The notes under the pieces: generated by a model | Databases searched by the model: none | Told to the model about the DNA's origin: nothing | What the model saw: only the letters and a program-made list of their open reading frames with translations | DNA from: Alphaproteobacteria bacterium | Lineage (GTDB): Bacteria > Pseudomonadota > Alphaproteobacteria > CAAHEQ01 > UBA3637 | DNA: 64,000 bases | Assembly (NCBI GenBank): GCA_017539265.1 | Contig: JAFYHG010000018.1 | Span: forward strand, 8,779-72,778 | Reading direction: 5' to 3' | Program-made: the position numbers and the translations under genes | In this document: positions 6,256 through 56,179 of the stretch, in pieces | Position numbering within the stretch: position 1 is the stretch's first letter | Layout: every line of letters starts with the position of its first letter

Positions 6256-7602
6256 ATGAAATCAGTTGCCATTGTCGGCCGTACCAATGTTGGAAAATCC
6301 ACGCTGTTTAATCGGCTGTGCGGGCGGCGTTTGGCTATTGTTCATGATCGGGCGGGGGTAACCCGCGACCGCAAAGAAGGGGACGCCACAATTAAAGACA
6401 TCTCTTTTCGGGTAATCGACACCGCGGGGTTAGAGGAAACAACTTCCCTTGCTGCCGCCATGTGGGATCAAACGGAAATCGCGATTCAAGAGGCTGATAT
6501 TATCCTTATGCTTGTGGATGCCAGATCCGAAGTAACACGACTCGACACGCGTTTGGCCGGTCTTCTTCGGCGACAAAAGAAGCCAGTCTTTTTAATTGCC
6601 AATAAATGTGAAGGGCGTTCCCAAGAACAACTGCTCGGTGAATTTTATCGTTTAGGTCTCGGTGATCCGCTTCCCTTCTCTGCCGAACACGCCTTGGGCA
6701 TGGATAAATTATATGCGCTTTTAAAACCGCTCTGCCCCAAGGAAGCTGAACCCCAAGAAGAAGCCGACAGACCTCTAAAATTGGCTATTGTCGGTCGCCC
6801 CAATGTCGGAAAATCCACGTTAATCAATAAACTCTTAAAAAAAGAACGCCTCTTAACCGGCCCCGAGGCCGGTGTCACGCGTGATGCGATTACCCTCCCC
6901 TGGCAATGGAAAGGGAATAATATTCTGCTTACCGACACGGCGGGCTTACGCAAACACGGTAAAGTTTCGGATGATTTGGAAAAAATATCTGCCGCCGATA
7001 CCCGTAATCAAATCGATTTCGCCGAGGTTGTCATTTTGGTTTTGGATGCCAATCAGCCGATGGAACGTCAAGATTTAATGATCGCCAGTCGTGTTCTGGA
7101 AGAAGGTCGGTGTTTGGTTATTGCCCTGAATAAGTGGGATACGATACAAAATCCGAAAGCTGTTTTAAACGAACTCAAATATAAAATGGAAGAATCCCTG
7201 CAACAAGTCAAAGGTCTTCCCATCGTTACCGTATCGGCTAAAACAGGTTTCGGCCTTAATCCGATGATGACGGCTGTTTTCCAGGTCTATAAACTTTGGA
7301 ATAAACGTGTCGCTACGCATAAGATGAATGACTTTTTAAAACAGATGACAGAGGCTCATCCCACTCCCGTTGCCCGCAACGGTCGGCGGATTCCCATGAA
7401 GTATATGACGCAAGTCAGCATTCGTCCCCCCACCTTTGTTATTTTTTCCAGTAATCCCGACCAACTGCCGAATTCATATTTGCGGTATTTGTCCAACGGC
7501 ATTCGGGAACGTTTCGGGCTCAAGGGTGTTCCCATTCGTATTCATATGCGTAAACGCGAAAACCCGTATGCGGATAAGAATAAATCCAAGAAGAAAAATT
7601 AA
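6256..7602 (+). CDS. der: ribosome-associated GTPase Der/EngA
   Basis: Two G domains (GRTNVGKST, GRPNVGKST, DTAG motifs) plus a C-terminal KH-like domain. Confidence 0.95.
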   Translation: MKSVAIVGRTNVGKSTLFNRLCGRRLAIVHDRAGVTRDRKEGDATIKDISFRVIDTAGLEETTSLAAAMWDQTEIAIQEADIILMLVDARSEVTRLDTRLAGLLRRQKKPVFLIANKCEGRSQEQLLGEFYRLGLGDPLPFSAEHALGMDKLYALLKPLCPKEAEPQEEADRPLKLAIVGRPNVGKSTLINKLLKKERLLTGPEAGVTRDAITLPWQWKGNNILLTDTAGLRKHGKVSDDLEKISAADTRNQIDFAEVVILVLDANQPMERQDLMIASRVLEEGRCLVIALNKWDTIQNPKAVLNELKYKMEESLQQVKGLPIVTVSAKTGFGLNPMMTAVFQVYKLWNKRVATHKMNDFLKQMTEAHPTPVARNGRRIPMKYMTQVSIRPPTFVIFSSNPDQLPNSYLRYLSNGIRERFGLKGVPIRIHMRKRENPYADKNKSKKKN

Positions 7603-8288
7603 TCCCCTAAATCCATCGCATAGCCGGCCGATCTGACCGTACGGATCAGGTCCGGTTCTCCCCCGGCATTTAAGGCATTTCTTAAACGTCTGATATGCAC
7701 GTCAACCGTTCTGGCTTCTACATAAATAGACCCGCCCCATACCGATTTTAAAAGGACTTCTCGGGATAAAACATCCCCCGGTTTTTCCATCAAAAACTGC
7801 AGCAATCTGAATTCGGTCGGTCCCAAATGAACTTCCCGACCGTCACGGGTTACACGATGTTTGGCATAATCGATTGTCATATCGCGGAAAGTGTGAATTT
7901 TATCCGGTACGGCCACCGGTTTTGCCCGCCGCAACAGTGCCGCCACCCGTGCCATTAATTCCGGAACAGAAAAAGGCTTCGTCACATAATCGTCCGCCCC
8001 GAAAGACAGGCCTTTCACTTTATCGGCTTCATCCCCACGCGCCGTCAACATAATAATTGGCGTTTGCCGCAAATCATAGGTTTTACGCATTTCCCGACAC
8101 AAATCTATTCCCGCCACATTCGGCAACATCCAATCCAATAAAATTAAGTCCGGTTTTTCCGTCAAAGCCACTTGCAATACTTCATGCCCGTCCATAACGG
8201 TAGCCGTTTCATATCCCTGCTTTTCCAGGTTGTATTTCAGCAAAGTAACCAAACCGGCTTCATCTTCCACAATTAAAACTTTTGTCAT
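7599..8288 (-). CDS. phoB: OmpR/PhoB-family response regulator, PhoB-like
   Basis: Receiver domain with LILLDWMLP, MLTARG and ADDYVTKPF. Winged helix with RTVDVHIRRLR. Confidence 0.7.
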   Translation of the reverse strand: MTKVLIVEDEAGLVTLLKYNLEKQGYETATVMDGHEVLQVALTEKPDLILLDWMLPNVAGIDLCREMRKTYDLRQTPIIMLTARGDEADKVKGLSFGADDYVTKPFSVPELMARVAALLRRAKPVAVPDKIHTFRDMTIDYAKHRVTRDGREVHLGPTEFRLLQFLMEKPGDVLSREVLLKSVWGGSIYVEARTVDVHIRRLRNALNAGGEPDLIRTVRSAGYAMDLGD

Positions 8289-8922
8289 TTTTTCAACCTT
8301 TCAATTGCTTTTTTATAATCCGAACTTTCACAGATATAACTGCCCGCGACCAAGACATCCGCTCCCGCCAATCGACACGCCGGCGCCGTGATATCATTCA
8401 CACCGCCATCCACCGAAATTTGAACGGGCTTATGCCCGATCAAATCCCGTAAATCGGCAATTTTTTTAAGGGCCTCTTTTTGAAAAGTTTGCCCACCGAA
8501 GCCGGGTTCCACTGACATCACAAGGACTAAATCAATCATCGGAATAAACGGCAAAATTTTATTGATATTCGTTTTTGGTTTTAATGAAAGCCCTACCTTA
8601 CATCCGTTCTTTCTGATGCGGGAAATCATATCGGGAATTTTATCTTTTGCCTCTATATGCACGGTAATCAGGTTTGATCCCGCCGCTGCAAATGCATCTA
8701 TGAATTTCAAGGGCGCTCTATCATCAAATGCGTATCAAAAGGCAGCTTCGTTACCGGCCGCAACTTTTGCACCACATCCGGTCCAAAGGATAAATTCGGC
8801 ACAAAATGTCCGTCCATAATATCCCAGTGTATCCAATCACTCCCCGCTTTTTCAAGGGTCTTGACTTCATCCCCCAAACGCGCCATATCGGCAGACAGCA
8901 AACTTGATGCAACTTTGACCAT
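8285..8922 (-). pseudogene. rpe: ribulose-phosphate 3-epimerase, interrupted by a frameshift at 8707-8715
   Basis: The N-part ends HLMIERP-stop. The C-part continues [20 protein letters not shown] in the -1 frame. Joined, they give a colinear full-length Rpe. SD aaggag lies before the ATG at 8922. Confidence 0.8.
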
Positions 8923-8973
8923 GCCCGACTCCTTTTGGGTTAGTATAGCCCAAAAATTCCCCGATTGCAAAGA

Positions 8974-9450
8974 TTATTTTTTAAGCATTTCAAACGCGCG
9001 TTCCAATAAAAGGGTTGCCGCATGGGCATCCAACACTTTTTTGCGTTTATCGGGCCGCATAAACAGGTCGTCTTTTAAATAAGATTCGGCTTTTACGGAA
9101 GTATATCTTTCATCTACCCACAAAATCGGCAAATTGAACTTCTCCTTTAATCTGTTTGCAAACAATCGCGCCTGATGTGCGGTTTCGCCCTCCTGTCCGT
9201 CGGTCTGTAGCGGTAGCCCTATCACAAAACCCACCACATTTTTTGCCGGCACAATATCATCCAATTCTTTTATTTTCGAAATAATTTTAAAGGGTGTTGC
9301 ATGTTCCCACTTCGCGTCGGATAAGGCAAGTCCGATCCGCACGGAGCCGTAATCAATCCCCAACAGGTTCCCCCTCGTGGGCAACGCTTTTTTAAAATTG
9401 TCCGCGGAAAGTTCTTGTCTTTCGTTTTGAAATAGGTTATTATTTATCAT
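8974..9450 (-). CDS. ruvX: YqgF/RuvX Holliday-junction-resolvase-like nuclease
   Basis: LLGIDYGSVRIGLALSD motif and typical length. The start is uncertain (ATG 9450 or TTG 9486). Confidence 0.75.
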   Translation of the reverse strand: MINNNLFQNERQELSADNFKKALPTRGNLLGIDYGSVRIGLALSDAKWEHATPFKIISKIKELDDIVPAKNVVGFVIGLPLQTDGQEGETAHQARLFANRLKEKFNLPILWVDERYTSVKAESYLKDDLFMRPDKRKKVLDAHAATLLLERAFEMLKK

Positions 9451-34740: not shown

Positions 34741-35661
34741 TTAACCGTTCATTTGTTTGGCAACTTCTGCGGCGAAATCTTCTTCTTTCTTTTCGATTCC
34801 TTCGCCCAAACCAAAGCGCACAAAAGCCGTCAATTTCACATCTGTTCCGACGGATTTTGCCAAATCGGCCACCACATCTTTAACCTTCTTGTCCGGATCC
34901 ATGATAAAGGCCTGTTCCAACAGGACCACTTCTTCATAGAATTTCCGCATCCGGCCTTCCACCATTTTTTCAATGATGGCCGCAGGTTTTCCGGAATTTT
35001 TAGCCTGTTCGCTATAGATTCCTTTTTCATGTTCAATCGTTGCCGCATCAACATCTGCCACCGCCAAAAAGCGCGGATTGGCCGCCGCAATATGCATGGC
35101 AATTTTCTTACCGGTTTCTTGTAACGCTGCTTGATCGCCCGTGCTTTCCAAAGCCACTAAAACACCAATCTTACCCATTCCCGATACCGTTGCCGTATGA
35201 ACATAGGGAACAACAACCCCTTGGTTCACCGACACATAACCGCTCCGACGCAGGTTCATGTTTTCACCGATTGTTGCAATCAAAGACGTTAAAGTATCCG
35301 AAACCGTTTTGCCGTTTAAATCGGCTGATTTAACGGCATCAACATCGCCTTTTTTCGCCAATGCAACCGTCATCACATCGCCCAAGAATTTTTGAAAGTC
35401 TGTATTTTTAGCCACAAAGTCTGTTTCGCTGTTGAGTTCCACCACAGCCCCTTCCAGACCTTTCACAATCACGCCGACAAGCCCTTGATTCGCTACCCGA
35501 CCGGCTTTCTTTTCGGCAACTGACATACCTTTTTTGCGCAAAAAGTCAATGGCGGCATCCAAATCACCATTTGTTTCCGACAGGGCTTTCTTGCACTCCA
35601 TCATACCGGCACCTGTTTTTTCGCGCAGTTCTTTAACTAAACCAGCTTTAATTTCTGACAT
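34741..35661 (-). CDS. tsf: elongation factor Ts
   Basis: [30 protein letters not shown]-like N-terminus, full length. Confidence 0.95.
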
Positions 35662-36208
35662 GTTGTTTTTCTCCTTTTGTTTGTTGTTGATTAATTTTTG
35701 TTTTTTTTCTTGAAATCAGAAGGGCCTGAATTTGTGTCTTACGATCGGCCAACAGTATTTCTGCAACCCGATAAGCCTGATGAGCCTGTTGTAAACAAAT
35801 CGCCCGTTCCAATATCGGATGATAGTTATAGTATTTAAAGGCTATTTTTGTCATTTCCGTTCTGCCATAGTTCCGTTTAGGACTTAAGGCCTTTACACAA
35901 ACCTGCTGTTCGGCCGGTGATAATCCCGCCGCGAACTGGCAATTTGTCTGATAATTCAAATCCTCTATACTGTCAAACCGTTTCCATTGTACTTCCCGCA
36001 ACTGTGGAAGAGGTCCCCGCAGTGTCCGCAAAGTAAAATGTTCCATATCCGGCGGAATATGGGCGACAAAAGTCTGCCCCGAACTCAGGCCAAACACATA
36101 GAATGAGCCACTCAATCCCGTTGAAAACAATTTTCTTTCCGATGCAGACGCCGGTTGCACAAAAGAAAGTGATGTCTTTAAAATTTTTCGGATTTGTTGC
36201 CCTTCCAT
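35648..36208 (-). CDS. hypothetical protein, diverged third paralog of the rpsB-tsf insert family
   Basis: SD ggggga 5 nt before the ATG. Motifs [12 protein letters not shown] and [10 protein letters not shown] match the two upstream ORFs. Overlaps the tsf start by 14 nt. Confidence 0.5.
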
Positions 36209-36223
36209 TATGTCCCCCTACAA

Positions 36224-36763
36224 TCACTCATATTGTTTCAGGTCATATGTTTGCCGCCGCATTGCCATAAAATCTTGCAGATTTTGTTCTGCCTGCACTT
36301 TTGCCTGCGACATTTTCAAGAAATTAGCCCAATGATGCACCAATTCCATGGTTGTTTTCAAAAGCGGCACACAATGATAATCCGGGAAAGGCACCCACCG
36401 TTTTTCCTTAATGGGATATGGTGTCAAAACTTGCTGATAGGCTTCTCTCGCTTGCGCCGAGCAAGTCGCCTGAAAAGAAATTTCCGTCTTCAAAGCCGCC
36501 GGATATCCGCAAAATCCCCGTGCATTTCTGTTTTTCCAGTGTATTTTTGTAACATCCGGAACTTGATTGTATTCGGCAATCGGTATAAACAGGTATCCCG
36601 ATTTTGAAATAATCCCCCGGTAAGCCTGTTGCTTCTCCAAGTAAAAATCTACTGTCAGTTGAGTCGTATCCCATTGGCGATTTTCCATCGAAACCACCGG
36701 GCTTTCCAATATCTGTTTAATGTTCGAATCCAACAGATACTCATTTTTTGATTTTCTAGCCAT
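36224..36763 (-). CDS. hypothetical protein, paralog 2 of the rpsB-tsf insert family
   Basis: SD gagg. 8-nt overlap (ATGGCTAG) with the upstream ORF. Colinear similarity to 36756..37277, ending TYDLKQYE. Confidence 0.55.
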   Translation of the reverse strand: MARKSKNEYLLDSNIKQILESPVVSMENRQWDTTQLTVDFYLEKQQAYRGIISKSGYLFIPIAEYNQVPDVTKIHWKNRNARGFCGYPAALKTEISFQATCSAQAREAYQQVLTPYPIKEKRWVPFPDYHCVPLLKTTMELVHHWANFLKMSQAKVQAEQNLQDFMAMRRQTYDLKQYE

Positions 36764-37277
36764 ATTGCCTCAGATCATAAGTTGCTTGTTTCAATGCTAA
36801 AATATCGGTCAAATTTTGATTCGCCTTCTTGGCAATCAGATCCATTTGAACTTTTTTCTCATAGGCATGTCGAACCTTAAATGCCGTCTGAAGCATCGGC
36901 ACATACCGATAAATCGGATACGGCCGCCAATCTTTTTCTTCAACTTCACGCGGTGTTAAGATTCTTTCATAAGCTTCTTTATCTACCTCTGATACCTTTT
37001 TGCTCAACACAACTTCGGTATCAAAACCGCTGCCGCGACCGCCGAAACCCATTCTATATGATTTCCACAGGATTTTCTGGAGTTCCGGCAATTGATTCTG
37101 CTCTGCATCAGCAGAAAACTGATATCCTTTTTCATTCCACAAAACACGGAATTTTTGTTTGCTTGACAGATAAAAATCCGCTTCCCACCATAAACCAATA
37201 TGGGGATCAACCGTTGACTGAAAATTTTCAATTTTGACAACTTCAGCGTTTAGTATTTTCTCGGCATTAGGCGTCAT
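36756..37277 (-). CDS. hypothetical protein, paralog 1 of the rpsB-tsf insert family
   Basis: ATG 37277 has SD aaagga 9 nt upstream. The alternative ATG at 37295 has no SD. Ends TYDLRQYG. Confidence 0.55.
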   Translation of the reverse strand: MTPNAEKILNAEVVKIENFQSTVDPHIGLWWEADFYLSSKQKFRVLWNEKGYQFSADAEQNQLPELQKILWKSYRMGFGGRGSGFDTEVVLSKKVSEVDKEAYERILTPREVEEKDWRPYPIYRYVPMLQTAFKVRHAYEKKVQMDLIAKKANQNLTDILALKQATYDLRQYG

Positions 37278-37300
37278 TTGAAGGTATCCTTTCATTCAAA

Positions 37301-37337: not shown

Positions 37338-38105
37338 TTATTCTGCCTTTGCTTCCGCAGGGGCTTCTGCCGGCACTTCTGCTGCCGCACCGACATCAAC
37401 GCCGGCCGCTTTTAATTCGGCTTGAATACCGTCTAAAACAGCACCGGAAACCAAATCGCAATAGAGGTTAATTGCTCTCAAGGCATCATCATTCCCCGGT
37501 ACCGGATAGGCAATCCCGTCCGGATTCGCATTAGAATCGCAAATCGCAACCACGGGGATCCCTAATTTTTGGGCTTCCGCAATGGCCAATTGTTCCTTGG
37601 GCACATCGATTACAAAGATAATGTCCGGACGACCGTTCATATCTTGAATACCACCTAATGAGGCAAACAATTTTTCGCGTTCGCGTTCCATGTTCAATTT
37701 TTCTTTTTTGGTAAAACCGTTCAATTCGCCTTTGGCGATTTTAGAATCGATTTCTTTTAAGCGTTTAATACTGGAAGAAATGGTTTTCCAGTTCGTGAGC
37801 ATACCACCCAACCAACGGTGATTCACAAAGAATTGGCCGCAACGTTTTGCTGCTTGTTCAATCGGTTCTTGGGCTTGTTCTTTAGTTCCCACAAACAAAA
37901 CCTTGCCACCTTTGGCCGCGACATCGCGGATGGCTTCCAAGGCCCGATACAACATCGGAACTGATTGTGTTAAATCCATGATATGCACGCCTTCACGTGT
38001 TCCATAGATATATTGCCCCATTTTCGGGTTCCAGCGGCGCGCATTGTGCCCGAAATGGACACCCGCTTCAATAAGTTGACGCATAGATATAGTCGGAAGA
38101 GTCAT
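37338..38105 (-). CDS. rpsB: 30S ribosomal protein S2
   Basis: [13 protein letters not shown] start region, full length, Ala/Glu-rich tail. Confidence 0.95.
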
Positions 38106-38257
38106 TTTAATATCCTTTCTTTTTCCGGTTAAACCTCAGTGGGGCAGAGCATCAATGAACCTTCATCGACACCGGAAGCGTTGTTTTCTCGGGAACTCCC
38201 CGAAATAAGCGCTTTCCCCACATGTGAATTTTGCCGTTTTTGTAAACGACGGTTGCT

Positions 38258-42911: not shown

Positions 42912-43254
42912 AACATCCCCCATAATAAAACACTTTTTGTATTGTAAACAATTTTTTTCTAAATGCAAGTGTAAAAAAACGAACATTTTTATTGTCTGCT
43001 GAACTAAATATATTACGAACGTTTTTTAATATTGTTATATAAAATGATCAAAAAGATCTACAAACCGGATATCAAAAAATGCACTAAAAGTTCACCATAA
43101 AGTTCCATAAAAATTGTCCTAAAATCAATTTAAAAATGAGGATAAGAAAAGTGTTTGTTTGTGTCCAAGGATTGTGTCCACCCCTTGTTGCCAAGCAAAA
43201 TTCCCAATTTCAGGCATAAAAAAAGCCTTGATAAACAAGGCATTATTTTAAAAG

Positions 43255-43271
43255 TGGCGCGCCCGGCAGGA
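43255..43271. repeat. att copy 2
   Basis: tggcgcgcccggcagga. Confidence 0.85.
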
Positions 43272-43476
43272 GCTTGGTGGAAAAGTGAAATAACCCACTG
43301 GATCAATTAAAAAATTTTTGGGCGATTTTTGAGGGTTTTCAGAAAGTGCCCAGGGGATGACAAGGGGTGATGAATGGACAAACTTCTTGATGTATTTCAG
43401 GGGTAATTTTACATAAGGATAAAAGTATATTTTGGATATCTGTCATAGGAGCACAGGTTGGGCAAAAAGGCATTTA

Positions 43477-43938
43477 TCAAAGATATTTCAAAAGACGCCT
43501 TGTAATTATGGATTGCCCCTCTTCATAAAGTCTGTCAAGGTACAAGCGTTTCGTAACTCCGTCATTTAAGTCCGAAATATTCCTTATTAGATTATGGACA
43601 CAGTCTATGGAGGGTTTTCTGTGTTCACAAAGGAGCATTCCAAAATAGTACTTGTTCTTGTTCAGGAACTGTTCACTGAACTGGTACTGGCTGTCTATAT
43701 ATCCTAATTTGCGGAGGTACTTATAGCATTTAGTTATAAATTGAGCATCTTCTGTTTGGTCAGAGTAAGGGGGATTGGAGAGTTCATCTGCAACCTCTTC
43801 ATCGACATTTTTGGTGTTTTTAGGTGCGGGTGGCACAAGTTCCTCCGGTGTATTCAGATGCTTTCTGATTTTCCTCATATTTTCGGCAATATCTTCAAAA
43901 CTTACAATCATGAATAATTTCCTTTTAGTAATAGACAT
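43477..43938 (-). CDS. hypothetical protein conserved at the element's tRNA-distal end
   Basis: ORF of 153 aa. A remnant of a homolog lies at the same relative position in the neighbouring element. Confidence 0.5.
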   Translation of the reverse strand: MSITKRKLFMIVSFEDIAENMRKIRKHLNTPEELVPPAPKNTKNVDEEVADELSNPPYSDQTEDAQFITKCYKYLRKLGYIDSQYQFSEQFLNKNKYYFGMLLCEHRKPSIDCVHNLIRNISDLNDGVTKRLYLDRLYEEGQSIITRRLLKYL

Positions 43939-43988
43939 CTGTATTTATAAAGAAAATGATTAAAAAATGGAATTTTTTAAAAAAGATC

Positions 43989-44017
43989 TTGGCTTTTAAA
44001 ATGATCGGCTATATAGT
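43989..44017 (+). promoter_or_regulatory. candidate promoter (island promoter cassette, copy A)
   Basis: TTGGCT-17 nt-TATAGT followed by cccgggcc. Paralogous to 47186-47214. Confidence 0.5.
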
Positions 44018-44060
44018 CCCGGGCCCCGGGCAAGACTGGGGTAACTGAAAGGATAAAAAT

Positions 44061-44432
44061 ATGCTGGAACAACAAATGATACAAAGCGATAACCTGAATA
44101 CCATTATGGCAAATTGCTATGGCACAGAGAATTATTACACAAACAACTATTTGAAATACAATTACACAGACGGAATTAAAACTTTCTGTGAACAGGCATC
44201 CGCTTATTGGTTATTGAGCCTTATCCAAGGGGTTTATACAAAATATCCTCAAATGCGGAAAGATTTAATTGCTATAACACTAATGGTAAATGATGACAAT
44301 ACTGCCATTATTACCTTTACCGATGAAAAAGGTCAATTTTATAAGCAGCGTATTCCTTATACGGATTGTCCGGTAGGAGAATGGAAATTTTATTTTGAAA
44401 ACAATGTATTTTTCTGGAATGGAGAATATTAA
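44061..44432 (+). CDS. hypothetical protein (resembles the DUF6876 plasmid/ICE family, from memory)
   Basis: CYGTENYY...YTDGIKTFCEQASAYWLLSLI motif block. Confidence 0.4.
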   Translation: MLEQQMIQSDNLNTIMANCYGTENYYTNNYLKYNYTDGIKTFCEQASAYWLLSLIQGVYTKYPQMRKDLIAITLMVNDDNTAIITFTDEKGQFYKQRIPYTDCPVGEWKFYFENNVFFWNGEY

Positions 44433-44433
44433 T

Positions 44434-44865
44434 ATGAATAAAGAACAAATTAAAGAAGCAATATTAGGGAAAAAAGATTGTCATGGGGAAGAAACACCTC
44501 TCTGTCAATTTTCAACATTCCATCCGGATATGGAAATGGTGGAGATATTATTAAAAGGTGCGGATATTAATAAATCTTTTAATCACCAACCGATGGCATG
44601 GGTATTTCAATTCTGTGAACCGAATTGGGATGAAATGCTCACGCTTTTGTTCAAATACAAATACCATGCCTTACATCTGGACAGGAAAAGCGATTTTGAA
44701 AGTTTACTGCAACTTTTATCCAGAGTTAAACCGGAAACCGTGATGTATGTCTTAAAAATAATGAAGAAACATAGGTTTCGACCGACATTTGAACAGATTG
44801 ATTACATAAATAAATCAAAAGAGGATTTTAAAAAGGAGTTTAAATGGAAAGACTGGGTGAAATGA
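44434..44865 (+). CDS. hypothetical protein, one degenerate ankyrin-like repeat
   Basis: The ATG at 44434 follows the upstream stop. EMVEILLKGADIN segment. Confidence 0.4.
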   Translation: MNKEQIKEAILGKKDCHGEETPLCQFSTFHPDMEMVEILLKGADINKSFNHQPMAWVFQFCEPNWDEMLTLLFKYKYHALHLDRKSDFESLLQLLSRVKPETVMYVLKIMKKHRFRPTFEQIDYINKSKEDFKKEFKWKDWVK

Positions 44866-45317
44866 CAAAAGGTTTGTTAAAAGCAATCAATGAAAGGAAT
44901 TGGCGAGAAATTAAAAGGCTGGTTCACTTGGGCGGAAACTTAAATGCCGCTTACGATCCGTTTGGAAATACACCCTTTTTATATGCCATGCATATTTTTA
45001 AGAAAGCGGAAGAAATTGAACGCTTGATTAAATTAGGTGGAGATGTGACCTATAAAAACAGGGTGGGAAAAACAGCCTTGATGATAGCAGTTGAAAATGG
45101 GTGTGAACCGATAACGCCTTGGGTTATGGTGGATTATGGAGCGGACATTAATGCACAGGATGCATTGGGAAACACCGCCTTAATGATTTGTTTAGAATCC
45201 AGATTATATACCAAGAAACTGCTTTATGCCCTGATAGATTACGGGGCAGATTTAACCAACCTGAAGAATAAGGAAGGGAAAACAGCGTTTGATATACTAT
45301 ATGATGAATTAGAGTAA
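44844..45317 (+). CDS. ankyrin repeat protein
   Basis: SD aaggag 5 nt before the ATG. Repeats GNTPFLYAM...LIKLGGDV, GKTALMIAVENG, GNTALMICL...LIDYGADL. Confidence 0.75.
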   Translation: MERLGEMTKGLLKAINERNWREIKRLVHLGGNLNAAYDPFGNTPFLYAMHIFKKAEEIERLIKLGGDVTYKNRVGKTALMIAVENGCEPITPWVMVDYGADINAQDALGNTALMICLESRLYTKKLLYALIDYGADLTNLKNKEGKTAFDILYDELE

Positions 45318-45336
45318 TCACTTTTGCGGAGAAGTG

Positions 45337-47076
45337 TTAACTAATCCGCAAATCTTTAATAGTTAATTCTTTGGTATTATTATCTTGGGGAAAATCTTTC
45401 CTGTCTTTTTCCCCAAAACCATATTCTTTTCGGCAATTTTCTAATTTGTTCCAGTCTTGCACACGATATGCATAAAGAGCAGATCGGGGATACATAATAC
45501 GCTTTCTTTGTCCAACAAAGGGGATTGATGTCTTGGTTCGTTTCTTTTTATCCGCCATCCTCTTTTTTGCTAACCAACTGATACTTTTTTCCAGATAACT
45601 TGCAGCAACTTTAGGTGACATCCATCCTGCATGAAGTGCATAACGGAGATGTGGTGATCCACTTGGTTTCCCTTTTCCTTCCAATCCCAAAGATGATATA
45701 ACGGATTGATAATTATGACTTAAAAGCATTTCCTTAAATACTTCTTTTTCTCGTTCTCTTTGGGGAGTGTTTTCATTAGTATACGCAATATTAGCGATTG
45801 TTGATTTATCACTTAAAGTGCATTCCTCAAAATCAAATCTCTTTAAGAAAGAAATATTCTCCAGAACAAGGTTACATCCCTCAAAAGAAGTCTGACTAAA
45901 GGAAACATCTCCCCCGAAAAGAGTGTTCCTTATAATAAAGTGCCGACTTCTTGGCGTTGCGTTAAACTTCAATTCTGAATTATTTAATAAAAAGGCACTA
46001 GATCTATTAAAAATACAGTTATGGATATAAAAACTTGTGTGAAATAAACTATTTCTAAAATCAAACTTACCATTTACAGTGCACTGCTCAAATGTTATAG
46101 CGTGCTTAATTTCCCTTGCGGGTGCAAAATCTTTCTCAAAGAAGCAATGATTAAAAGTGACTCTTGCTCTTATCGCATCATGGGGACAGACATAGTTAGC
46201 GGAAAATAGACAATCTTTGAAGAAAACACCTTCCATTGGATTAAATGCCCCATGAAAGCATATCAAATTCCAAAAGAATTCCTGCTCTTTTCTACCAAAT
46301 TCTACATTTTCTATTATAATAATAGAGCGACAATATTCGGAAGGAACTATTTTATATTGATGAGGTTTCTTGATTGTCTTGGTTGCCTGCGGGTGTTGTA
46401 GAAATACAATCTTATCTATTTCCTTTTTAATTTCAGGAGATTTGGTTTGTTCCGCCAGCATATAAAAAGGAGTACGGATTTCTTTCAAAAAGTCTGGATA
46501 CAAAACGGTTGGCAAGTGTTTTGTCAGTTGAACGGGTGAATTTCCAAACTTTTTGAACAGGTAAAGCAGTTCTCTTAAAAAATATCTGCCATTATTACCG
46601 ACTTTAGTTCTTATTCGTGCTAATGCTCCGACCATTCCTTTGGCATCTGCTAGGTCTTCAATATCTTGTGTTGTAATTTTGCCTCTTTTGTAATCATCTG
46701 TATCAATTTCAAAACAGGCAGAAAAGATATCTTGGAAGGTACGGATACATAACCTTAATGTTTGGTCAACACCTATTGGGTAATAATCGGGATGCGTAAA
46801 TGCATCAGGATATCCCTTCTCTGGTTGTTTTGTTTTAATGTATGTTTGTAAAATGTTTGGATAGACATCCGTCCAAAAATCTAAATTCAAAGATTTGAAC
46901 CGACCTTCTGGTCCATAGACCAGTTCTTCTTGGTAATCTTCATCTAAAAAAAAGTTTGGGCGTTCCAGTTTCATAAAAAACTCATATAAGTTGAAAAAGT
47001 TGGGGGGATTATACCACAAAATCTCCCAAAAGTCCAGAAGAACAAGAAATGTTAAAAAATCCATCTTTTTTAACAT
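45337..47076 (-). CDS. hypothetical protein: unknown N-domain + beta-helix/pentapeptide-like repeats + C-terminal excisionase-type HTH
   Basis: Periodic F.[NDQE][CST].F units across residues about 300-440. C-terminal MSPKVAASYLEKSISWLAKKR...IPFVGQRKRIMYPRSALYAY. The start is uncertain. Confidence 0.5.
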   Translation of the reverse strand: MLKKMDFLTFLVLLDFWEILWYNPPNFFNLYEFFMKLERPNFFLDEDYQEELVYGPEGRFKSLNLDFWTDVYPNILQTYIKTKQPEKGYPDAFTHPDYYPIGVDQTLRLCIRTFQDIFSACFEIDTDDYKRGKITTQDIEDLADAKGMVGALARIRTKVGNNGRYFLRELLYLFKKFGNSPVQLTKHLPTVLYPDFLKEIRTPFYMLAEQTKSPEIKKEIDKIVFLQHPQATKTIKKPHQYKIVPSEYCRSIIIIENVEFGRKEQEFFWNLICFHGAFNPMEGVFFKDCLFSANYVCPHDAIRARVTFNHCFFEKDFAPAREIKHAITFEQCTVNGKFDFRNSLFHTSFYIHNCIFNRSSAFLLNNSELKFNATPRSRHFIIRNTLFGGDVSFSQTSFEGCNLVLENISFLKRFDFEECTLSDKSTIANIAYTNENTPQREREKEVFKEMLLSHNYQSVISSLGLEGKGKPSGSPHLRYALHAGWMSPKVAASYLEKSISWLAKKRMADKKKRTKTSIPFVGQRKRIMYPRSALYAYRVQDWNKLENCRKEYGFGEKDRKDFPQDNNTKELTIKDLRIS

Positions 47077-47185
47077 TGCTTTTAAAGGATTTGAAAAATA
47101 AGGCTATTTTATTTTAACCTATATGCCCCAAATTATGAAATGTTTAATTTTAAAGAAAAAACTTATATTTTTTAACATTTAGGGC

Positions 47186-47214
47186 TTGGCTTTTCAAAAA
47201 ATCGGCTGTATGCT
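47186..47214 (+). promoter_or_regulatory. candidate promoter (island promoter cassette, copy B)
   Basis: TTGGCT-17 nt-TATGCT followed by cccgggcc. Confidence 0.5.
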
Positions 47215-47257
47215 CCCGGGCCGCAATAAAAGTTCAATTTTAACGAAAGGATACAAA

Positions 47258-47839
47258 ATGGTTAATCAAGTTTTTATTGACGACAAGAAAATTAAAGACA
47301 TCTTAACTTACATTCAGGGGATGAGACATGCTGAAATGATACGGATGATGTTTTTATGTTCACTGAATGGCATGAGGTCTATAAATTTCGCCTATCTCCA
47401 AGTAGGTGATGTTTATACTCCCGACTTTAAGGTTAAGGATGTCATTTGTTTGGATGCGGATAAAAATAAAGGAAAGTTCGGGTGTTCGTATTATCTTAAC
47501 AGCCAAATGAAGAAAGAGTTTAAGGAGTATTTAGGGTATTTGAAGGCTAAAAATGAAGAGATTACGCCAGAAATGTATTTGTTTACCTCACAAAAGATGG
47601 GAAAACCTTTCAACCGTGTGTCAATTTCACGGATGTTCGCAACCGTTTACAAAAAGTTCAACATTGAAGGAGCATCACACTTGGGGCGACATTTGTTCGT
47701 GAGTCGGCTTATCAATGCTGGAACTAATATCTGTTTGGTTCAGAAACTCGCCAACCATCGCAACATTGGCACAACCCAACGTTATTTTAATTATAACGAG
47801 AAAATGCTCTCAAATGCTGTGGAAAATGTAGTTTTATAG
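47258..47839 (+). CDS. small tyrosine recombinase, FimB/FimE-like size (catalytic domain only)
   Basis: SD aaagga. 193 aa. HLGRHLFVSRL and LANHRNIGTTQRYF catalytic motifs. Confidence 0.75.
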   Translation: MVNQVFIDDKKIKDILTYIQGMRHAEMIRMMFLCSLNGMRSINFAYLQVGDVYTPDFKVKDVICLDADKNKGKFGCSYYLNSQMKKEFKEYLGYLKAKNEEITPEMYLFTSQKMGKPFNRVSISRMFATVYKKFNIEGASHLGRHLFVSRLINAGTNICLVQKLANHRNIGTTQRYFNYNEKMLSNAVENVVL

Positions 47840-47850
47840 CTGTGTGGTAG

Positions 47851-48113
47851 CCTAAAAGTGTATATAATTTTAAGTTATATCTCTTTTTCTTCTTCTTGAA
47901 TTAGAACATGTTCTAATCCACAGAGTATTTTATAGATTCCGAGGAATCTTGTTTGAACTAGTAATTTTTTTAGTTCTTTAAATTTAGCATGTATTTGTAT
48001 CAAAATTATTTTTTCTTTAAAAATTTGATTGGAATTTTTCATAGTAATATCCTTTCTTAAAAAAATAAGGGAACATTAAAGTCCCCATCTATTTCAACTC
48101 ATACACTTTTAGG
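47851..48113. repeat. 13-bp perfect inverted repeats flanking a 237-bp segment (candidate invertible element or MITE)
   Basis: cctaaaagtgtat at 47851-47863 and atacacttttagg at 48101-48113. Internal 18-bp palindrome attagaacatgttctaat at 47900-47917. Confidence 0.55.
47875..48042 (-). CDS. possible 55-aa ORF inside the IR-flanked segment
   Basis: aaaggatattactATG SD/start. MKNSNQIFKEKIILIQIHAKF... No homology judged. Confidence 0.3.
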   Translation of the reverse strand: MKNSNQIFKEKIILIQIHAKFKELKKLLVQTRFLGIYKILCGLEHVLIQEEEKEI

Positions 48114-48161
48114 TATTACATGTTATTTAATGATTGCGCCAAGTGTTTGATGCATTTGTTT

Positions 48162-49130
48162 TTATGGTGTTTTTTGTAATTTCTTAAATTGGTAAAATAC
48201 AGATGCCGGCGAAACACCGAAATAGTCGCCAATTTGTCTAAAACTCATTCCAGCTGTTTTCATTCGTACCAATTGTTTGCTATCCACTTTAAAGTCTTCC
48301 CAGCCTTTATTTTTAACTAAATCAAATTTTTTTATAACCCTGTAGATACTCGCTGGATGGGCATTTACCTTTTTTGCAATTTCTTTTCCCGAAACACCAG
48401 AAAAATACAATTTTTTTATAAGTTCTTCCTGCTTTCCCAACCGACTATTCAATTTAATTTGATCAGGTGTCCGGGTTAATCCCATTTTTTTAATTTCTTG
48501 TTCAAGAAGTTTATGAGAGCATCCTAATTTTTCTGCTATAAAGGAAATGGATCTTCCTTCAGCAAACATCTCTTTTATCTTATCCTTTTTAAGGTCTAAT
48601 TTCTTCAGTTTAGGTGCTTCTAAATTATGTAAAAGAATGAAATTATACAATGTTGAATAGCAAACATTATATTTTTGTGCAATGGCTTTTCTAGAGACAC
48701 CTTTTAATAATAGGTCTTGTATATCATCTTTATAGTGGTCTATTCTGGTCCAGTTATGGCGAGGTTCTGGTTTTAACCCCAATAATCTTTGTTCTTCTAA
48801 TGTTTTTTTGCCTTTTTTATAGACCTGTATACGATCAAGTGATGCGACATAAATACCGCTTTCTTTTTCAAATTTTATGAGTGTTCTGCGGCATATTTTC
48901 AATTTTTTACAGATATCTTCACGCGTTAGCCCTAATTTATAAAAATGTTTTATTTTTTCGGGATTAAGTTTTATTTCCCGAGTATGTGGTTCTCTTTTCC
49001 ACCCTAAATCTTTTAGATAATTACGAAGGGTAGAAAGACTTATATTCATACGATCCGCTATCCCGCCCAAGGAAAGGTCAGATTTGTAGAGTTCTTTTAA
49101 TTTGTCTATATCTAGTTCAATTTTGTTCAT
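48162..49130 (-). CDS. DNA-binding protein with six tandem helix-turn-helix modules
   Basis: Six units of the form [IL]K.[LM]Y..G.S...IA.K.......[LI]...[IL]KK..L, e.g. GVSGKEIAKKVNAHPASIYRVIKKF. Confidence 0.6.
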   Translation of the reverse strand: MNKIELDIDKLKELYKSDLSLGGIADRMNISLSTLRNYLKDLGWKREPHTREIKLNPEKIKHFYKLGLTREDICKKLKICRRTLIKFEKESGIYVASLDRIQVYKKGKKTLEEQRLLGLKPEPRHNWTRIDHYKDDIQDLLLKGVSRKAIAQKYNVCYSTLYNFILLHNLEAPKLKKLDLKKDKIKEMFAEGRSISFIAEKLGCSHKLLEQEIKKMGLTRTPDQIKLNSRLGKQEELIKKLYFSGVSGKEIAKKVNAHPASIYRVIKKFDLVKNKGWEDFKVDSKQLVRMKTAGMSFRQIGDYFGVSPASVFYQFKKLQKTP

Positions 49131-49146
49131 TTATGGGCGGATTTTC

Positions 49147-49174
49147 AAAAAAAGCGGAGTATTTCTACTCCGCT
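49147..49174 (-). terminator. Rho-independent terminator after the island adhesin
   Basis: On the minus strand, agcggagta-gaaa-tactccgct forms a 9-bp stem followed by ttttttt. Confidence 0.65.
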
Positions 49175-49234
49175 CACTTAAATTAACTAATAGGAAGGGA
49201 GACCGAGAAATCAGTCTCCCCGGAGTTCTTCGCA

Positions 49235-52200
49235 TTAGAATCCAAAAGTCACACCGACTTTGTAGGACACGCTGTCGTTGCCACCATAGGCAGCACCGGC
49301 GTTCAACAATGTCCGGTCGTTGAGATAATGGAATGCACCAACAGCCAAGGCTTGGTTGTTCTTGTATCCGCCCAAAGCCGCACTGACTTGCGTTTTGTGG
49401 ACATGATCCAGAGGAACAAGACCTGCCAAAGCGTTGTTAGCAGCTAACCCGTTTTCCATCTTGGTTTCTAACTTGTTGATACGGCGATCAACGCGGGCGA
49501 ATTCAGCACCCAAGTTATCATTCAAGTTGGTCAAGAGGTCAGAAATGCTTGACGGATCACCAACGGCTTGTGCACCAACAGCACCACCATTAGCTTGTTC
49601 TTTTCCTTTAAAGAACTTTAAGTTCTCTAAAGAAGACAAATCGCCAACAGTTTCATCAACGGCTTCAAAAGCAGATTCTGTAGCTGATTCTAACAATGCA
49701 ATTTGGTTATCTGTGTAAGTATTAGCATTGGCCTCAGCTGTATCAGCAGCACCATATGCATCATATGTATTAGCTGCAATAGCACCACTGATAGATGTAA
49801 TCTTACCATCTGTTTCAACGATGTTCAAAGACAAACCATCAGCACCTGCTGCTTGTGATACATTAGCATCTAAAGCATTAACTTTACCATCTGCGTAAGT
49901 CTTTGCATCAGCCAAAGCATTAGCAGCAGCACCATATGCATCATATGTATTAGCTGCAATAGCACCGCTGATAGCTGTAATCTTACCATCTGTTTGTGTA
50001 ATACTTAATGATAAGCCATCAGCACCGGCTGCTTGTGATACATTAGCATCCAAAGCATTAACTTTACCATCTGCGTAATTTTTGGCATTGGTTTCTGCTG
50101 TATTAGCATAACCTTTTGCTTGAGTATTCACATAAGTAACTGCTTCTGCAAGAGAACCAACCTGTTCGGTTGATACTTCTAAAGCGGTACGCATTGTATC
50201 CAGATTACCGACACGGCTATCAAGACCTTTGATTTGTCCATCTAAAACAATGTCAGCACCTGTCAATGTTGTTGCAGCTGTCAGGTAGTTTGTATCGGCG
50301 TATTCGTTGTTAACTGCATTCGAATTGGCCGAAGTAATACCCAATGTGTTATCAACCCATTGTTGTTTCTCGTTGAAGATAGCTTCTGCTTCTGTCCGTG
50401 TATAGACATCTGCGAGATTTGCTTTGTTAGCATCCAAAGCATCCAAAGCACCACGAACTGTTGTCGTTGAGCCTTCGCCTTGCTTTAACACAGAACCGTC
50501 TACAGCTTCTTCATCCGCATAGTTAACATCACCGATGGTGTCATTTGTGCCTTTGATTTGCGCATCCAAAACAATGTCAGCACCTGTCAAGGTTGTTGCA
50601 TCCGTCAGGTAGTTTGTGTCGGCGTATTCGTTGTTAACTGCATTCGCATTAGCCGAAGTAATACCCAATGTGTCATCAACCCATTGTTGTTTTTGTGCAA
50701 AGATAGCTTCTGCTTCGCTTCTGACACCGGCAACAGCCGTTGTAACAGCGGTATTAATCTTGCCATCAACAACTTTGCCCAATGAATCATCATAGGCCGC
50801 TACACTAGCCTCATGAGTAGCTGTATCAGTTGTGAAGTTAGTATTAGCTGTTTGCAATGATCCTTCCCAATTATTCAGGTTAGTTACTGTTGCTTGGTCA
50901 GTCGCCATGGTAGTAGCAATCTTATCCTTATTTGCAACGCTGTCATCATAGTAACCTTTTAATTCGGATTGTCTATTGGCCAGAGCCGTTACATCAGATT
51001 CGTAAGCATTAACTAGGTCTGCTTTGATACCTGCTGTAGTTGCATCATCTGCTGATACTGCTGTTCCATTTTTCTTTAAGACATAGCCATCTTCTGACGC
51101 TTCGATGGTATAATGGTCACCTGCAGTATTCGTCAATTCATAATTGGCAATATCAACACTTCCAGTTCCTGCGCTAGATGCAGTGATATCAAGTTTACCA
51201 CCTAAATCACTCGTCTGAACTGTATCTGTTAATTCTGCAACCGCTGTGCTACCTGCGACAGAAGTAGAATTACCATCTTTATCATATGTGACATATGTAT
51301 AATCATCGGCAGTCAGAGTACCACTATCATAGGACAGGTCGGCCACAGCAGAAATACCATCTACAGTAGCAGCTGCAGAAGTTGCAGTGTAATCTGCCGA
51401 TGTATAGGAAGCACCAGCGACTAAATCTGTGGGATTACCTTCTGGATCTGTAAAGCCATAATCCGCGGCATCCGGTGCATCACCAGGAGCGTTTGCAGAA
51501 ATGCTTGACACTTTATCAGACAATGTCTTCAAAGCAGTGTCCAAAGCGGTATCAGCACCCGTCAAGGTTGTTGCAGCTGTCAGGTAATTTGTTCCGGTGT
51601 ATTCGTCGTTAACTGCATTCGCATTAGCCGAAGTAATACCCAATGTGTTATCAACCCAGGTTTGCTTTTCGTTGAAGATAGCTTCTGCATTATCCCATAA
51701 TGTTCCCAAAGCGGTATCTGTATAGTTTTTCGCATAAGTCTTTGCATTTGCTTCAGCTGTATTCGCTTTCGTTGTTGCATCAGTAGCAGCGGCTGTAATC
51801 GCTTCGGATTTAGCAGTAGCAGCAGCACCATAAGCATCATATGTATTTGCAGCAATGCTACCAGAAATACCAGTAATCACACCATTTTCTTGAGTGATGC
51901 TCAAAGCCAATTGACCATTACCTGCGGCTGCAGCTTGAGTTTCTGTTGCATTCAAAGCATCAATTGCATCACCAACTGTTTTGCTCACAGAACCATCGCC
52001 TGTACCATTCAAGGTAGCAATAGCGCTCTCGTTTGTTGTGATTTTACCTACAAGAGTAGAAGTAATACCAGAGTTGACGGCAGCTAATTGTTCTGTTCCC
52101 AATTTTGCTTGGTATGTATTCGCCAAATCTAAAGCATCAATTGCATCACCAACTGTTTTGCTCACAGAACCATCGCCTGTACCATTCAAGGTAGCAATAG

Positions 52201-52726
52201 CATCTGCATTGGCTTTAACCTGTGTATCCAATAACTTATCTGCGCCAGCCATTGTTGTTGCGCCTGTCAGATAATTTGTACCGGTATACGCATTTGTTAC
52301 CCCAGTTGTTCCGGTGGATAAATCAACGCCCAATGTTTTCTGGGAAATGACACCACCTGTTAATTCTACAAAATCACCAACAGCAGTATTGACAACGGCA
52401 TAATCACCAGCATCTGAACTACCCGCTAGCAATTGTGCTAAAGCATCACGAGTGTATTTGGGGTGAGCCGCTGCAAAATCTGCATCAATGGTGTAATCTG
52501 TTCCACCAAGATTTGTAGTGTAGGTGTCTGTCCCCGTTGTGATGGCTGTATGAAAATTAGTTAAGTTTGTTGCAACTGAAGCAGTAGGGTCATAAGCCTC
52601 ATCTGCTGCCTTTGCACCTGTGGCAACGATTAAGCCCACTGCAAAGGCATTAAGCAGAAAACATTTCTTCAAAACACTACGGTATCTCGCAGAAAGTTCT
52701 CTGATTGTTGTTTTTGTATATTTCAT
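49235..52726 (-). CDS. trimeric autotransporter adhesin (YadA-like), island-borne
   Basis: Extended signal MKYTKTTIRELSARYRSVLKKCFLLNAFAVGLIVATGAKA. Long internal repeats. Anchor ...GAFHYLNDRTLLNAGAAYGGNDSVSYKVGVTFGF. Confidence 0.85.
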   Translation of the reverse strand: MKYTKTTIRELSARYRSVLKKCFLLNAFAVGLIVATGAKAADEAYDPTASVATNLTNFHTAITTGTDTYTTNLGGTDYTIDADFAAAHPKYTRDALAQLLAGSSDAGDYAVVNTAVGDFVELTGGVISQKTLGVDLSTGTTGVTNAYTGTNYLTGATTMAGADKLLDTQVKANADAIATLNGTGDGSVSKTVGDAIDALDLANTYQAKLGTEQLAAVNSGITSTLVGKITTNESAIATLNGTGDGSVSKTVGDAIDALNATETQAAAAGNGQLALSITQENGVITGISGSIAANTYDAYGAAATAKSEAITAAATDATTKANTAEANAKTYAKNYTDTALGTLWDNAEAIFNEKQTWVDNTLGITSANANAVNDEYTGTNYLTAATTLTGADTALDTALKTLSDKVSSISANAPGDAPDAADYGFTDPEGNPTDLVAGASYTSADYTATSAAATVDGISAVADLSYDSGTLTADDYTYVTYDKDGNSTSVAGSTAVAELTDTVQTSDLGGKLDITASSAGTGSVDIANYELTNTAGDHYTIEASEDGYVLKKNGTAVSADDATTAGIKADLVNAYESDVTALANRQSELKGYYDDSVANKDKIATTMATDQATVTNLNNWEGSLQTANTNFTTDTATHEASVAAYDDSLGKVVDGKINTAVTTAVAGVRSEAEAIFAQKQQWVDDTLGITSANANAVNNEYADTNYLTDATTLTGADIVLDAQIKGTNDTIGDVNYADEEAVDGSVLKQGEGSTTTVRGALDALDANKANLADVYTRTEAEAIFNEKQQWVDNTLGITSANSNAVNNEYADTNYLTAATTLTGADIVLDGQIKGLDSRVGNLDTMRTALEVSTEQVGSLAEAVTYVNTQAKGYANTAETNAKNYADGKVNALDANVSQAAGADGLSLSITQTDGKITAISGAIAANTYDAYGAAANALADAKTYADGKVNALDANVSQAAGADGLSLNIVETDGKITSISGAIAANTYDAYGAADTAEANANTYTDNQIALLESATESAFEAVDETVGDLSSLENLKFFKGKEQANGGAVGAQAVGDPSSISDLLTNLNDNLGAEFARVDRRINKLETKMENGLAANNALAGLVPLDHVHKTQVSAALGGYKNNQALAVGAFHYLNDRTLLNAGAAYGGNDSVSYKVGVTFGF

Positions 52727-53005
52727 TAACTATACCTTTCTTTTTAATATTAAAATTAAAGTTACGAGGAGTTCTCTTTTTCAAAACCCTCGTCCGTCAT
52801 CTTACACAAATGTTCCTTTATGAAATGATTTGAAGAAAAGTGATAAAAATAGCATACTTTTGTCTTATATATTATTGTATTTTCAATATGTTATATTCAA
52901 TTTTAATTTTTTTAAAAAAAATGTTAAAAAATGTTTGCAATTTAAGGAACTATTTTTTGCATATGAAATTATCGGCAATAAATAACTTTAACAAAAGGAT
53001 ACAAA

Positions 53006-53617
53006 ATGGCAACTATCGCATATATCAGGGTTAGCAGCGATAAACAAACCTGTTCTAACCAACACTTTACGATTAAAGAATACACAAAATCTCACAATAT
53101 CCACATTGATAAATGGGTTGAAGAGACTATTTCCAGCAAGAAACCTTTGGAAAAGCGGGAATTAGGCGTATTATTAAATAAAATGGATAAAGGCAGTTTA
53201 TTAATTGTAACGGAAATCAGCCGTCTTGCCCGTAATCTATACGAATTGGCGGGCATATTGCAAAATGCTATTAAGAACGACATTACTGTTATTAGTATCA
53301 AGGAAAACTATCAGTTCAAAAATGATATCCAGTCCAAAATTATGGCATATACTTTTGGGCTTGCCGCAGAAATTGAGCGTGATTTGATCTCAACCCGCAC
53401 TAAAATGTCATTGGATAAATTAAAAAAGCAAAATGTTAAATTAGGCAGACCATTCGGGGCGGAGACAAAATGTTTAAAACTATCCAAAAACCGCAAGAAA
53501 ATAAGGGAATTATTAGGAAAAGGTGTCAGTCAGGCCAAAATATCCAAAATCCTTGGCGTCCACCCGACAACCATGTGCCGGTTCTTGAAACGAGTGGATG
53601 TGTCAACCTGTTCCTGA
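53006..53617 (+). CDS. serine recombinase (resolvase/invertase family)
   Basis: AYIRVSSDKQ catalytic serine region, SRLARN motif, C-terminal HTH GVSQAKISKILGVHPTTMCRFLKR. Confidence 0.85.
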   Translation: MATIAYIRVSSDKQTCSNQHFTIKEYTKSHNIHIDKWVEETISSKKPLEKRELGVLLNKMDKGSLLIVTEISRLARNLYELAGILQNAIKNDITVISIKENYQFKNDIQSKIMAYTFGLAAEIERDLISTRTKMSLDKLKKQNVKLGRPFGAETKCLKLSKNRKKIRELLGKGVSQAKISKILGVHPTTMCRFLKRVDVSTCS

Positions 53618-53767
53618 TGGGAATGTTCCTCGCCAAAAGGCGGCTAACCACTTTGTTTTTGATCTTGTATGACGGCATCAGGCAGTTTAATCCCACTTAT
53701 TATACAAAAGCCCTCTATTTTAATCCCAAATAAAAGGAATCTATTATCAAATTCACCTCTATAATAG

Positions 53768-53800
53768 TTCTATTTTATTTCTATTATAATTCTATTATAG
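53768..53800. repeat. three tandem AT-rich 11-mers (DUE-like)
   Basis: ttctattttat / ttctattataa / ttctattatag, head to tail. Confidence 0.6.
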
Positions 53801-53854
53801 GAACAAAAAACACCCAGATAGGCCTTGTGTTTATTGGCGTTTCTCAAATTGTAC

Positions 53855-54047
53855 CGAACATAACAGTCTCCGCTACCGAACATATGGGCACCGGGAGCGA
53901 ACATATGAGCATCGCTAGCGAACATAACAGTCTCCAAAATTGCCCAAACCGAACATATAAGCATCGCCCCCCTAAAAAACGAACATATCAACCTCTAGCG
54001 AATAATTTTTTTGTAAATCGGTGAAATCCATCATCGAGCGAATAAAT
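53855..54047. repeat. iteron-like direct repeats (CGAACATA core)
   Basis: Cores at 53855, 53877, 53898, 53919, 53950 and 53980, plus CGAATAA variants at 53999 and 54039. Spacing 21-22 or 30-31 bp. Confidence 0.6.
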
Positions 54048-54076
54048 ACCCCTGTAAATCAATTTTAGGAGGTTTT

Positions 54077-54589
54077 ATGAGTAAAAGTAAATCAGATTTG
54101 TCCCTCACAAAGCGTGTGTTGTTGGACTTTGTAAAATTTAAGACCCAAAACGGGCATCAATTCTTTGCGAGCAACGAGTATATTGCCAAAGGTTTAGATC
54201 TAACCGAGAATACTGCCAAGACATTTGTTAATGACCTTATAAGAGAAGGATACCTTTATAAAGAGATAGATAAGAGAGGCATGAGAATTTTATCCCTAAC
54301 CGGTAAGGAATACAAACCATTGTTTGAAGATTTGAGGAACTTTGATAAGAAAGTACTTAAAGAGGACAGAGATAACTTTCAAAGGGATAACAAATATTTG
54401 AACCAACAGTTAGAACAGGAAACAGCATATAAGGAACAACTATTAAACGAAAATACAGATTTAGTCCTTTCCAATGCTGAACTAACCCATCGTGTTCAGG
54501 AACTGGAAAAGAGAGTTACTGCTTTGGAGAACATCTTTTATAAAAATGGAATGACAAAGGAACAACTGGAGGATTTATTGAATAAATAA
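54077..54589 (+). CDS. winged-helix + coiled-coil protein, candidate Rep/regulator for the adjacent iterons
   Basis: SD aggagg. N-terminal wHTH-like FASNEYIAKGLDLTENTAKTFVNDLIREGYLYK. C-terminal heptad-rich segment. Confidence 0.45.
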   Translation: MSKSKSDLSLTKRVLLDFVKFKTQNGHQFFASNEYIAKGLDLTENTAKTFVNDLIREGYLYKEIDKRGMRILSLTGKEYKPLFEDLRNFDKKVLKEDRDNFQRDNKYLNQQLEQETAYKEQLLNENTDLVLSNAELTHRVQELEKRVTALENIFYKNGMTKEQLEDLLNK

Positions 54590-54628
54590 AAATGTGGGCA
54601 TGCTTTCAACCACACTTCATAAAAATAC

Positions 54629-54655
54629 ACCCTCAACTCTCGTTGAGGGTTTTTG
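54629..54655. terminator. bidirectional terminator hairpin between convergent genes
   Basis: accctcaac-tctc-gttgagggt forms a 9-bp stem with a T-run after it and an A-run before it. Confidence 0.55.
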
Positions 54656-55022: not shown

Positions 55023-55206
55023 TTTTTGCCTCCGTTCTTTTGAAATCTAGTAAAAATTTAGCAACTGCCTTTTGATATTCAACCTTTTCCGGTTCTAGTA
55101 ACTCTTCGTATATATCTAGCAATTTCTCCAAAGTATCCTTTAATTTATCTTCGGGCGTATGCCTTAAAGTGAACTGAACCGCTTTTAATAAAGACATTCC
55201 CAACAT
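55003..55206 (-). CDS. hypothetical small protein
   Basis: 67-aa ORF overlapping the ankyrin gene start. Preceded by a 24-codon mini-ORF (55207..55280) with SD aaaggag and a TAATG junction. Confidence 0.35.
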   Translation of the reverse strand: MLGMSLLKAVQFTLRHTPEDKLKDTLEKLLDIYEELLEPEKVEYQKAVAKFLLDFKRTEAKNGKSGR

Positions 55207-56113: not shown

Positions 56114-56179
56114 TTATTTAACAGAGAGTGGAAAACTGGAACTTTTTCACTCTCATAACCTAACAAAAGGAATTATACT

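Follow-up and report, generated by a model that had tools for sequence, protein, structure and literature searches.

A single-base frame break in the rpe gene of an alphaproteobacterial metagenome assembly that is absent from other assemblies of the same organism

An overview of the rpe locus is given in Table 1, together with other features of the window, by which we mean the whole stretch of 64,000 nucleotides that was analysed. The gene for ribulose-phosphate 3-epimerase lies on the minus strand between ruvX and phoB, and its reading frame is split in two. The sequence of that strand from 8730 to 8707, cat ttg atg ata gag cgc cct tga, encodes HLMIERP-stop; the -1 frame, which begins ttg aaa ttc ata gat gca ttt gca gcg gcg gga at 8710, remains open for 141 codons, from the ttg at 8710–8708 to the TGA at 8287–8285. 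Direct reading of the sequence bears out both frames as an earlier note on this DNA had given them, and also the strong Shine-Dalgarno sequence (AAGGAG, 8934–8929) and the position ahead of phoB that it had described. The stop codon of rpe and the start codon of phoB overlap in the tetranucleotide ATGA (8288–8285), and because of this overlap phoB is probably translationally coupled to rpe. The same 4-nt overlap of the two genes is seen from the gene coordinates of two relatives whose Rpe proteins share 80–85% identity (L094, 1477–1480; L097, 3636–3639), and the gene upstream of rpe varies, being ruvX in the window, ruvC in L097 and a 263-aa ORF in a third relative, L091. These arrangements suggest that rpe-phoB is a conserved, translationally coupled pair in this alphaproteobacterial gut clade. 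No second rpe gene was found within the window.

Table 1. Features of the rpe locus and of a putative mobile island in the window. Positions are those of the window.
Feature	Position	Strand	Basis or remark
phoB, 229-aa response regulator	7599..8288	-	Exact protein is NCBI MBR6412186.1, 'phosphate regulon transcriptional regulator PhoB', of an Alphaproteobacteria MAG
rpe C-terminal piece, codons 72–212 and stop (ends ERLKK-stop), -1 frame	8285..8710	-	PF00834 profile positions 71–197, E 1.3e-38
Premature TGA made by the frame change; overlaps the TTG (8710–8708) that opens the downstream frame	8707..8709	-	
rpe N-terminal piece, codons 1–71 (MVKVASS...HLMIERP), original frame	8710..8922	-	PF00834 profile positions 1–69, E 2.9e-27
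Lesion: CCC run, CCCC in same-organism assemblies; CGC-CCC-TTG becomes CGC-CCT-TGA	8711..8713	-	Base-by-base alignment to the ENA contig (L081, L083) and a Logan contig (L082)
Shine-Dalgarno AAGGAG, 6-nt spacer before the rpe ATG at 8922	8929..8934	-	Anti-SD duplex of -8.2 kcal/mol predicted
ruvX, 158 aa as called in the ENA contig, upstream of rpe	8974..9450	-	PF03652 on the L081/L083 gene calls; ORF listed in the window
Short integrase-family ORF	47186-47839		Putative island
Resolvase	53006-53617		Putative island
DUF6538 and phage-integrase gene	57007-58779		Putative island
Ankyrin-repeat proteins	44844-45317, 54633-55022		Putative island

When the two pieces are joined they restore rpe, as had been claimed, and the product is a gap-free ribulose-phosphate 3-epimerase of 212 amino acids. 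This protein scores 264.6 bits against the rpe equivalog model TIGR01163 (cutoff 212.6), matching positions 1–211 of 211, covers positions 1–197 of the 198 in PF00834, and aligns with no gap at the junction to the solved Rpe structures 1rpx (E 1.5e-52) and 1tqj; examined against the family models, these two structures and 25 relatives, the spacing at the junction is gap-free throughout. In a tblastn search with the intact protein the match switches frame at the break point. The residues H32, D34, H65 and D172, which we take to be the metal and catalytic residues of Rpe (two His and two Asp), occupy invariant columns in an alignment of 26 sequences. The split ORFs are a real rpe gene with exactly one single-base frame break, and not a chance pair of ORFs. 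Once repaired, the window gene is a full-length, gap-free and ordinary member of the Rpe family (TIGR01163/PF00834; 1rpx, 1tqj), from which the ORF as it stands differs in being cut after codon 71 by a deletion of one nucleotide, whereas the assemblies of the same organism are intact.

These other assemblies were reached through the flanking PhoB and RpiB proteins, both of which are on record exactly as they occur in the window. A 126-kb ENA contig (ERZ27256873 k141_1918238) encodes an unbroken 212-aa Rpe beside an identical phoB, and a Logan contig of SRR31077518, reported in 3 samples, spans the junction with the C4 allele and is in frame through it; in the window, Rpe is not encoded by one uninterrupted ORF, the split falling at 8707–8713. 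Both contigs read GAG CGC CCC TTG AAA at the junction where the window reads GAG CGC CCT TGA, and codons 1–71 are 100% identical to those of the intact gene in the ENA contig. The missing C is the sole difference in 12.3 kb around rpe in comparisons with the ENA and Logan contigs, with none other in the 639 nt of the gene itself. The lesion had been taken for the loss of a T from ccctttg; it is instead the loss of a C from CCCC, and the restored IERPLKF is the same either way. The organism thus has the intact allele in two or more assemblies that are independent of each other, and the exact intact Rpe protein is carried by two long contigs.

Searches of larger collections add to this picture. 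An exact look-up among about 15 billion proteins returned neither of the half-proteins, including the form with an alternative 87-aa start and an M-initiated C-terminal half, and a JGI metagenome scan with a pattern for both variants of the junction (GATAGAGCGCCN{1,2}TTGAAATTCATAGA) gave 0 matches. A scan of a genome collection with the joined protein gave relatives at no more than 54% identity among the matches listed. The PhoB protein has an NCBI accession and the intact Rpe comes from ENA sources only, a pattern that would fit the listing of rpe as a pseudogene in the NCBI record from which the window probably comes.

Among the matches listed, all 120 of 120 relatives (61–93% protein identity) have an uninterrupted rpe, mostly of 211–216 aa; one listed relative is a 159-aa fragment on a contig of 852 nt. 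No gap falls at the junction in the 26-sequence alignment, in which P71 does not vary. The DNA of three relatives with 88%, 85% and 80% protein identity has the junctions CAC-CCG-CTT, CAT-CCA-TTA and CAC-CCG-ATG, respectively, so that these three share with the window neither the run of C nor a slippery motif. A comparison of orthologues for a shared CCCTTGA, which the earlier note had proposed, gave a negative answer: the same-organism assemblies carry the intact CGCCCCTTG, and the relatives have other in-frame codons. Nei-Gojobori dN/dS ratios against the intact allele are 0.04–0.06 for the whole gene and 0.03–0.10 for each half where computable; the two halves are strongly constrained by purifying selection as one protein. 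The marks of a decaying pseudogene are not seen, as these ratios show no relaxed constraint in either half and there is no second lesion in 639 nt; the lesion, if real, is extremely recent.

By its coordinates the ENA contig covers all of the window, and the two were compared from 2599 to 64000 (61.4 kb). The rpe C is the only indel in this comparison, and there are six SNPs, at 34408, 38138, 47325, 47362, 49451 and 52643. There are 1,728 homopolymer runs of at least 4 nt and 207 of at least 6 nt in the compared stretch, among which the C4 run of rpe alone differs in length. Because of the six SNPs and this sole change in run length, the window and the ENA contig are seen to be haplotypes that differ slightly, and homopolymer errors are not widespread in the assembly of the window. 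A systematic homopolymer error of the sequencing platform was rejected, as 0 of the 207 runs of at least 6 nt differ in length. Four of the five coding SNPs are non-synonymous, and this predominance indicates very recent variation that has not been purged; a deleterious frameshift could persist likewise. We note that Logan contigs of this organism stop short of polymorphic or variable sites, with one (L087) ending at 47311, 14 nt before the SNP at 47325, and that the SRR31077518 contigs break between 8832 and 9360; such ends would fit communities in which several strains were mixed.

Several other features of the window are apparent. Three ORFs without a Pfam match (186, 179 and 179 aa; 35648–37295, minus strand) lie between rpsB (37338–38105) and tsf (34741–35661), two genes that usually lie side by side; the ORFs of 179 aa are paralogues of each other (36% identity, E 2e-37), and the gene calls on the independent ENA contig include all three. 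Upstream of rpsB is an rpsB leader RNA (RF01815, 46.9 bits; 38108–38226, minus strand), within which the SNP at 38138 lies (A in the window, T in the ENA contig), and a full-length RNase P RNA of bacterial class A is located at 63286–63652 on the minus strand (282.6 bits). The region from about 43000 to 59200 looks like an integrated mobile island beside a tRNA-Arg(ACG) gene (59090–59166), and contains a DUF6538 and phage-integrase gene, a resolvase, a short integrase-family ORF and ankyrin-repeat proteins (Table 1), as well as a DUF6876 gene; of the six SNPs that separate the window from the ENA contig, four lie in this region. An ORF at 49235–52726 on the minus strand encodes a 1163-aa protein with a YadA-anchor domain, of the trimeric autotransporter type, and this gene has internal DNA repeats of 71–200 nt with 86–100% identity, and differs from its counterpart on the ENA contig by two non-synonymous SNPs.

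The break in rpe had been offered in the earlier note as a pseudogene, a read error or a -1 slip site, and this set has been narrowed: a private mutation or an error stands, and the slip site falls, being absent in the same-organism assemblies and in the relatives. We are confident that the lesion is private to one assembly and unprogrammed and that translation needs no frameshift, because the normal allele is intact in the same organism. In a programmed or selected -1 frameshift, the P-site tRNA-Pro would slip from CCU to CCC while UGA occupies the A site, UUG would be read next, and full-length Rpe would result; the broken frame would then be how the gene normally stands, and might regulate the amount of Rpe or of phoB. 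The local sequence lends itself to such a slip in that a tRNA on CCU could pair again with CCC after moving back by one base and the next codon is a stop, with a slow A site (stop codons beside slippery codons raise slippage, the so-called 'shifty stop'); the product would equal the wild-type IERPLKF, and the true rpe start retains its strong Shine-Dalgarno sequence. However, the break is common neither to the same-organism assemblies nor to any of the 120 listed relatives, the CCG-CTT, CCA-TTA and CCG-ATG of the relatives show no conserved slip motif, and C-CCU-UGA contains no X-XXY-YYZ heptamer, such that only the P-site codon can re-pair. Searches for stimulatory elements gave nothing: neither the 88 nt downstream of the site nor the 101 nt surrounding it folds more stably than shuffled sequences (z +0.58 and +0.49), an Rfam scan of the whole window found nothing at the rpe break, and upstream of the internal TTG the best anti-SD duplex reaches -2.1 kcal/mol, compared to -8.2 at the rpe start. 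No paper linking rpe with programmed frameshifting was found in the literature searched. The slip-site reading is contradicted by the comparative data and is not supported, and we regard a programmed shift at this site as most improbable. Comparison with known frameshift sites is also informative. As in prfB, a slippery P-site codon directly precedes a stop and the shifted product is full-length, but the prfB shift is +1 (CUU-UGA-C, with an upstream Shine-Dalgarno sequence), whereas that in the window would be -1, at a break that not even other assemblies of the species share; and unlike the -1 sites of dnaX and of the IS3 family (A-AAA-AAG with a Shine-Dalgarno sequence and a hairpin), the window has neither a tandem slippery heptamer nor an SD-like or structural stimulator. 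The frameshifts of prfB and dnaX are conserved across wide phylogenetic ranges.

A two-piece enzyme has also to be weighed, in which ribosomes would restart at the overlapping UUG after the UGA, and the 71-aa and 141-aa fragments would form an active barrel. In the TTGA at 8710–8707 the stop and the TTG share two bases, a layout that allows termination-reinitiation, and split (beta/alpha)8 barrels are sometimes reconstituted from fragments. Against this, there is no split rpe among the listed relatives and the fragments are recorded nowhere else; the split is one base old and unadapted, with no Shine-Dalgarno sequence before the TTG, and the break comes directly after the HLM metal-ligand strand, so that a working pair of fragments is barely credible. 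Taken together, any functional recoding or split-enzyme reading is very unlikely. There is similarly only a slim chance that the C3 allele is both real and fixed in the strain and yields useful Rpe by -1 slippage of tRNA-Pro at C-CCU-UGA or, as a two-piece barrel, by restart at the UUG; it would then be a natural, newly arisen 'leaky' frameshift at the very start of a path to recoding. Phase variation was also considered, since the window differs from close genomes by one base in a C run, as phase-variable contingency genes do, and was rejected: the tract is only C4 or C3, in the gene for a housekeeping enzyme, and is absent in the relatives. Phase-variable tracts usually have at least 7 bases.

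There remains the nature of the break itself. The chances are about even that the C3 allele was really in the DNA of the sampled population, as a very young null allele; it is also quite possible, at somewhat less than even weight, that the source DNA reads CCCC as well and that the C was lost in sequencing, in assembly, in co-assembly of mixed strains or in polishing, with the gene functional. An artefact of the consensus would account for the intact run in every other same-organism assembly found and for a gene that is otherwise unchanged, and the lesion lies where indel errors usually arise, within a homopolymer. The strong constraint on rpe (dN/dS about 0.05), with no further decay, and its coupling to phoB mean that a null allele should be costly, and the frameshifted halves are recorded nowhere else. 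On the other side, this is one indel in 61.4 kb, in a C run of just four, and all 207 runs of at least 6 nt agree; the window is, moreover, a separate haplotype with six SNPs, so it truly differs from the other assemblies. Contigs made by De Bruijn graph assemblers are built of k-mers seen in the reads, and rarely contain indels that the reads do not have. The records matching the window bear the sample names of an Illumina NovaSeq study that assembled with MEGAHIT and IDBA-UD (PMC8199421), to which we infer that the window also belongs. This likely source study assembled complex gut communities both sample by sample and by co-assembly (PMC8199421). Locally low coverage or strain mixtures can cause errors in such work, and where depth is low an error in a single read can end up in a contig. 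In either case, the break is of the commonest class of frame breaks in assembled genomes. Ordinary frameshift pseudogenes, and genes called as 'frameshifted' in MAGs, likewise have a one-base homopolymer change that is private, with no further decay and with intact sister alleles, and nothing sets the window lesion apart from them.

If the C3 allele is real, it would have arisen by a replication-slippage deletion that shortened C4 to C3, and would truncate Rpe after residue 71. The resulting 71-aa peptide would keep H32, D34 and H65 and would be without beta-strands 4–8, D172 and the phosphate-binding loops, and it should be inactive because most of the barrel is missing together with D172 and these loops. 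Translation would also stop 426 nt before the start of the coupled phoB gene, which would probably lower the expression of phoB. Any full-length Rpe made from this allele would reflect unselected background slippage at C-CCU-UGA, and would be incidental. Should the allele be both real and leaky, it would offer a small natural example of a stop beside a slippery codon that cushions a frameshift, with no sign of selection for that. The value of these observations is chiefly in annotation, in that the locus is to be read as rpe, frameshifted or possibly in error, rather than as two small ORFs or as a candidate for recoding; for the biology of the organism they carry little weight, this being a routine one-base break in a known housekeeping gene of which the wild-type allele is intact.
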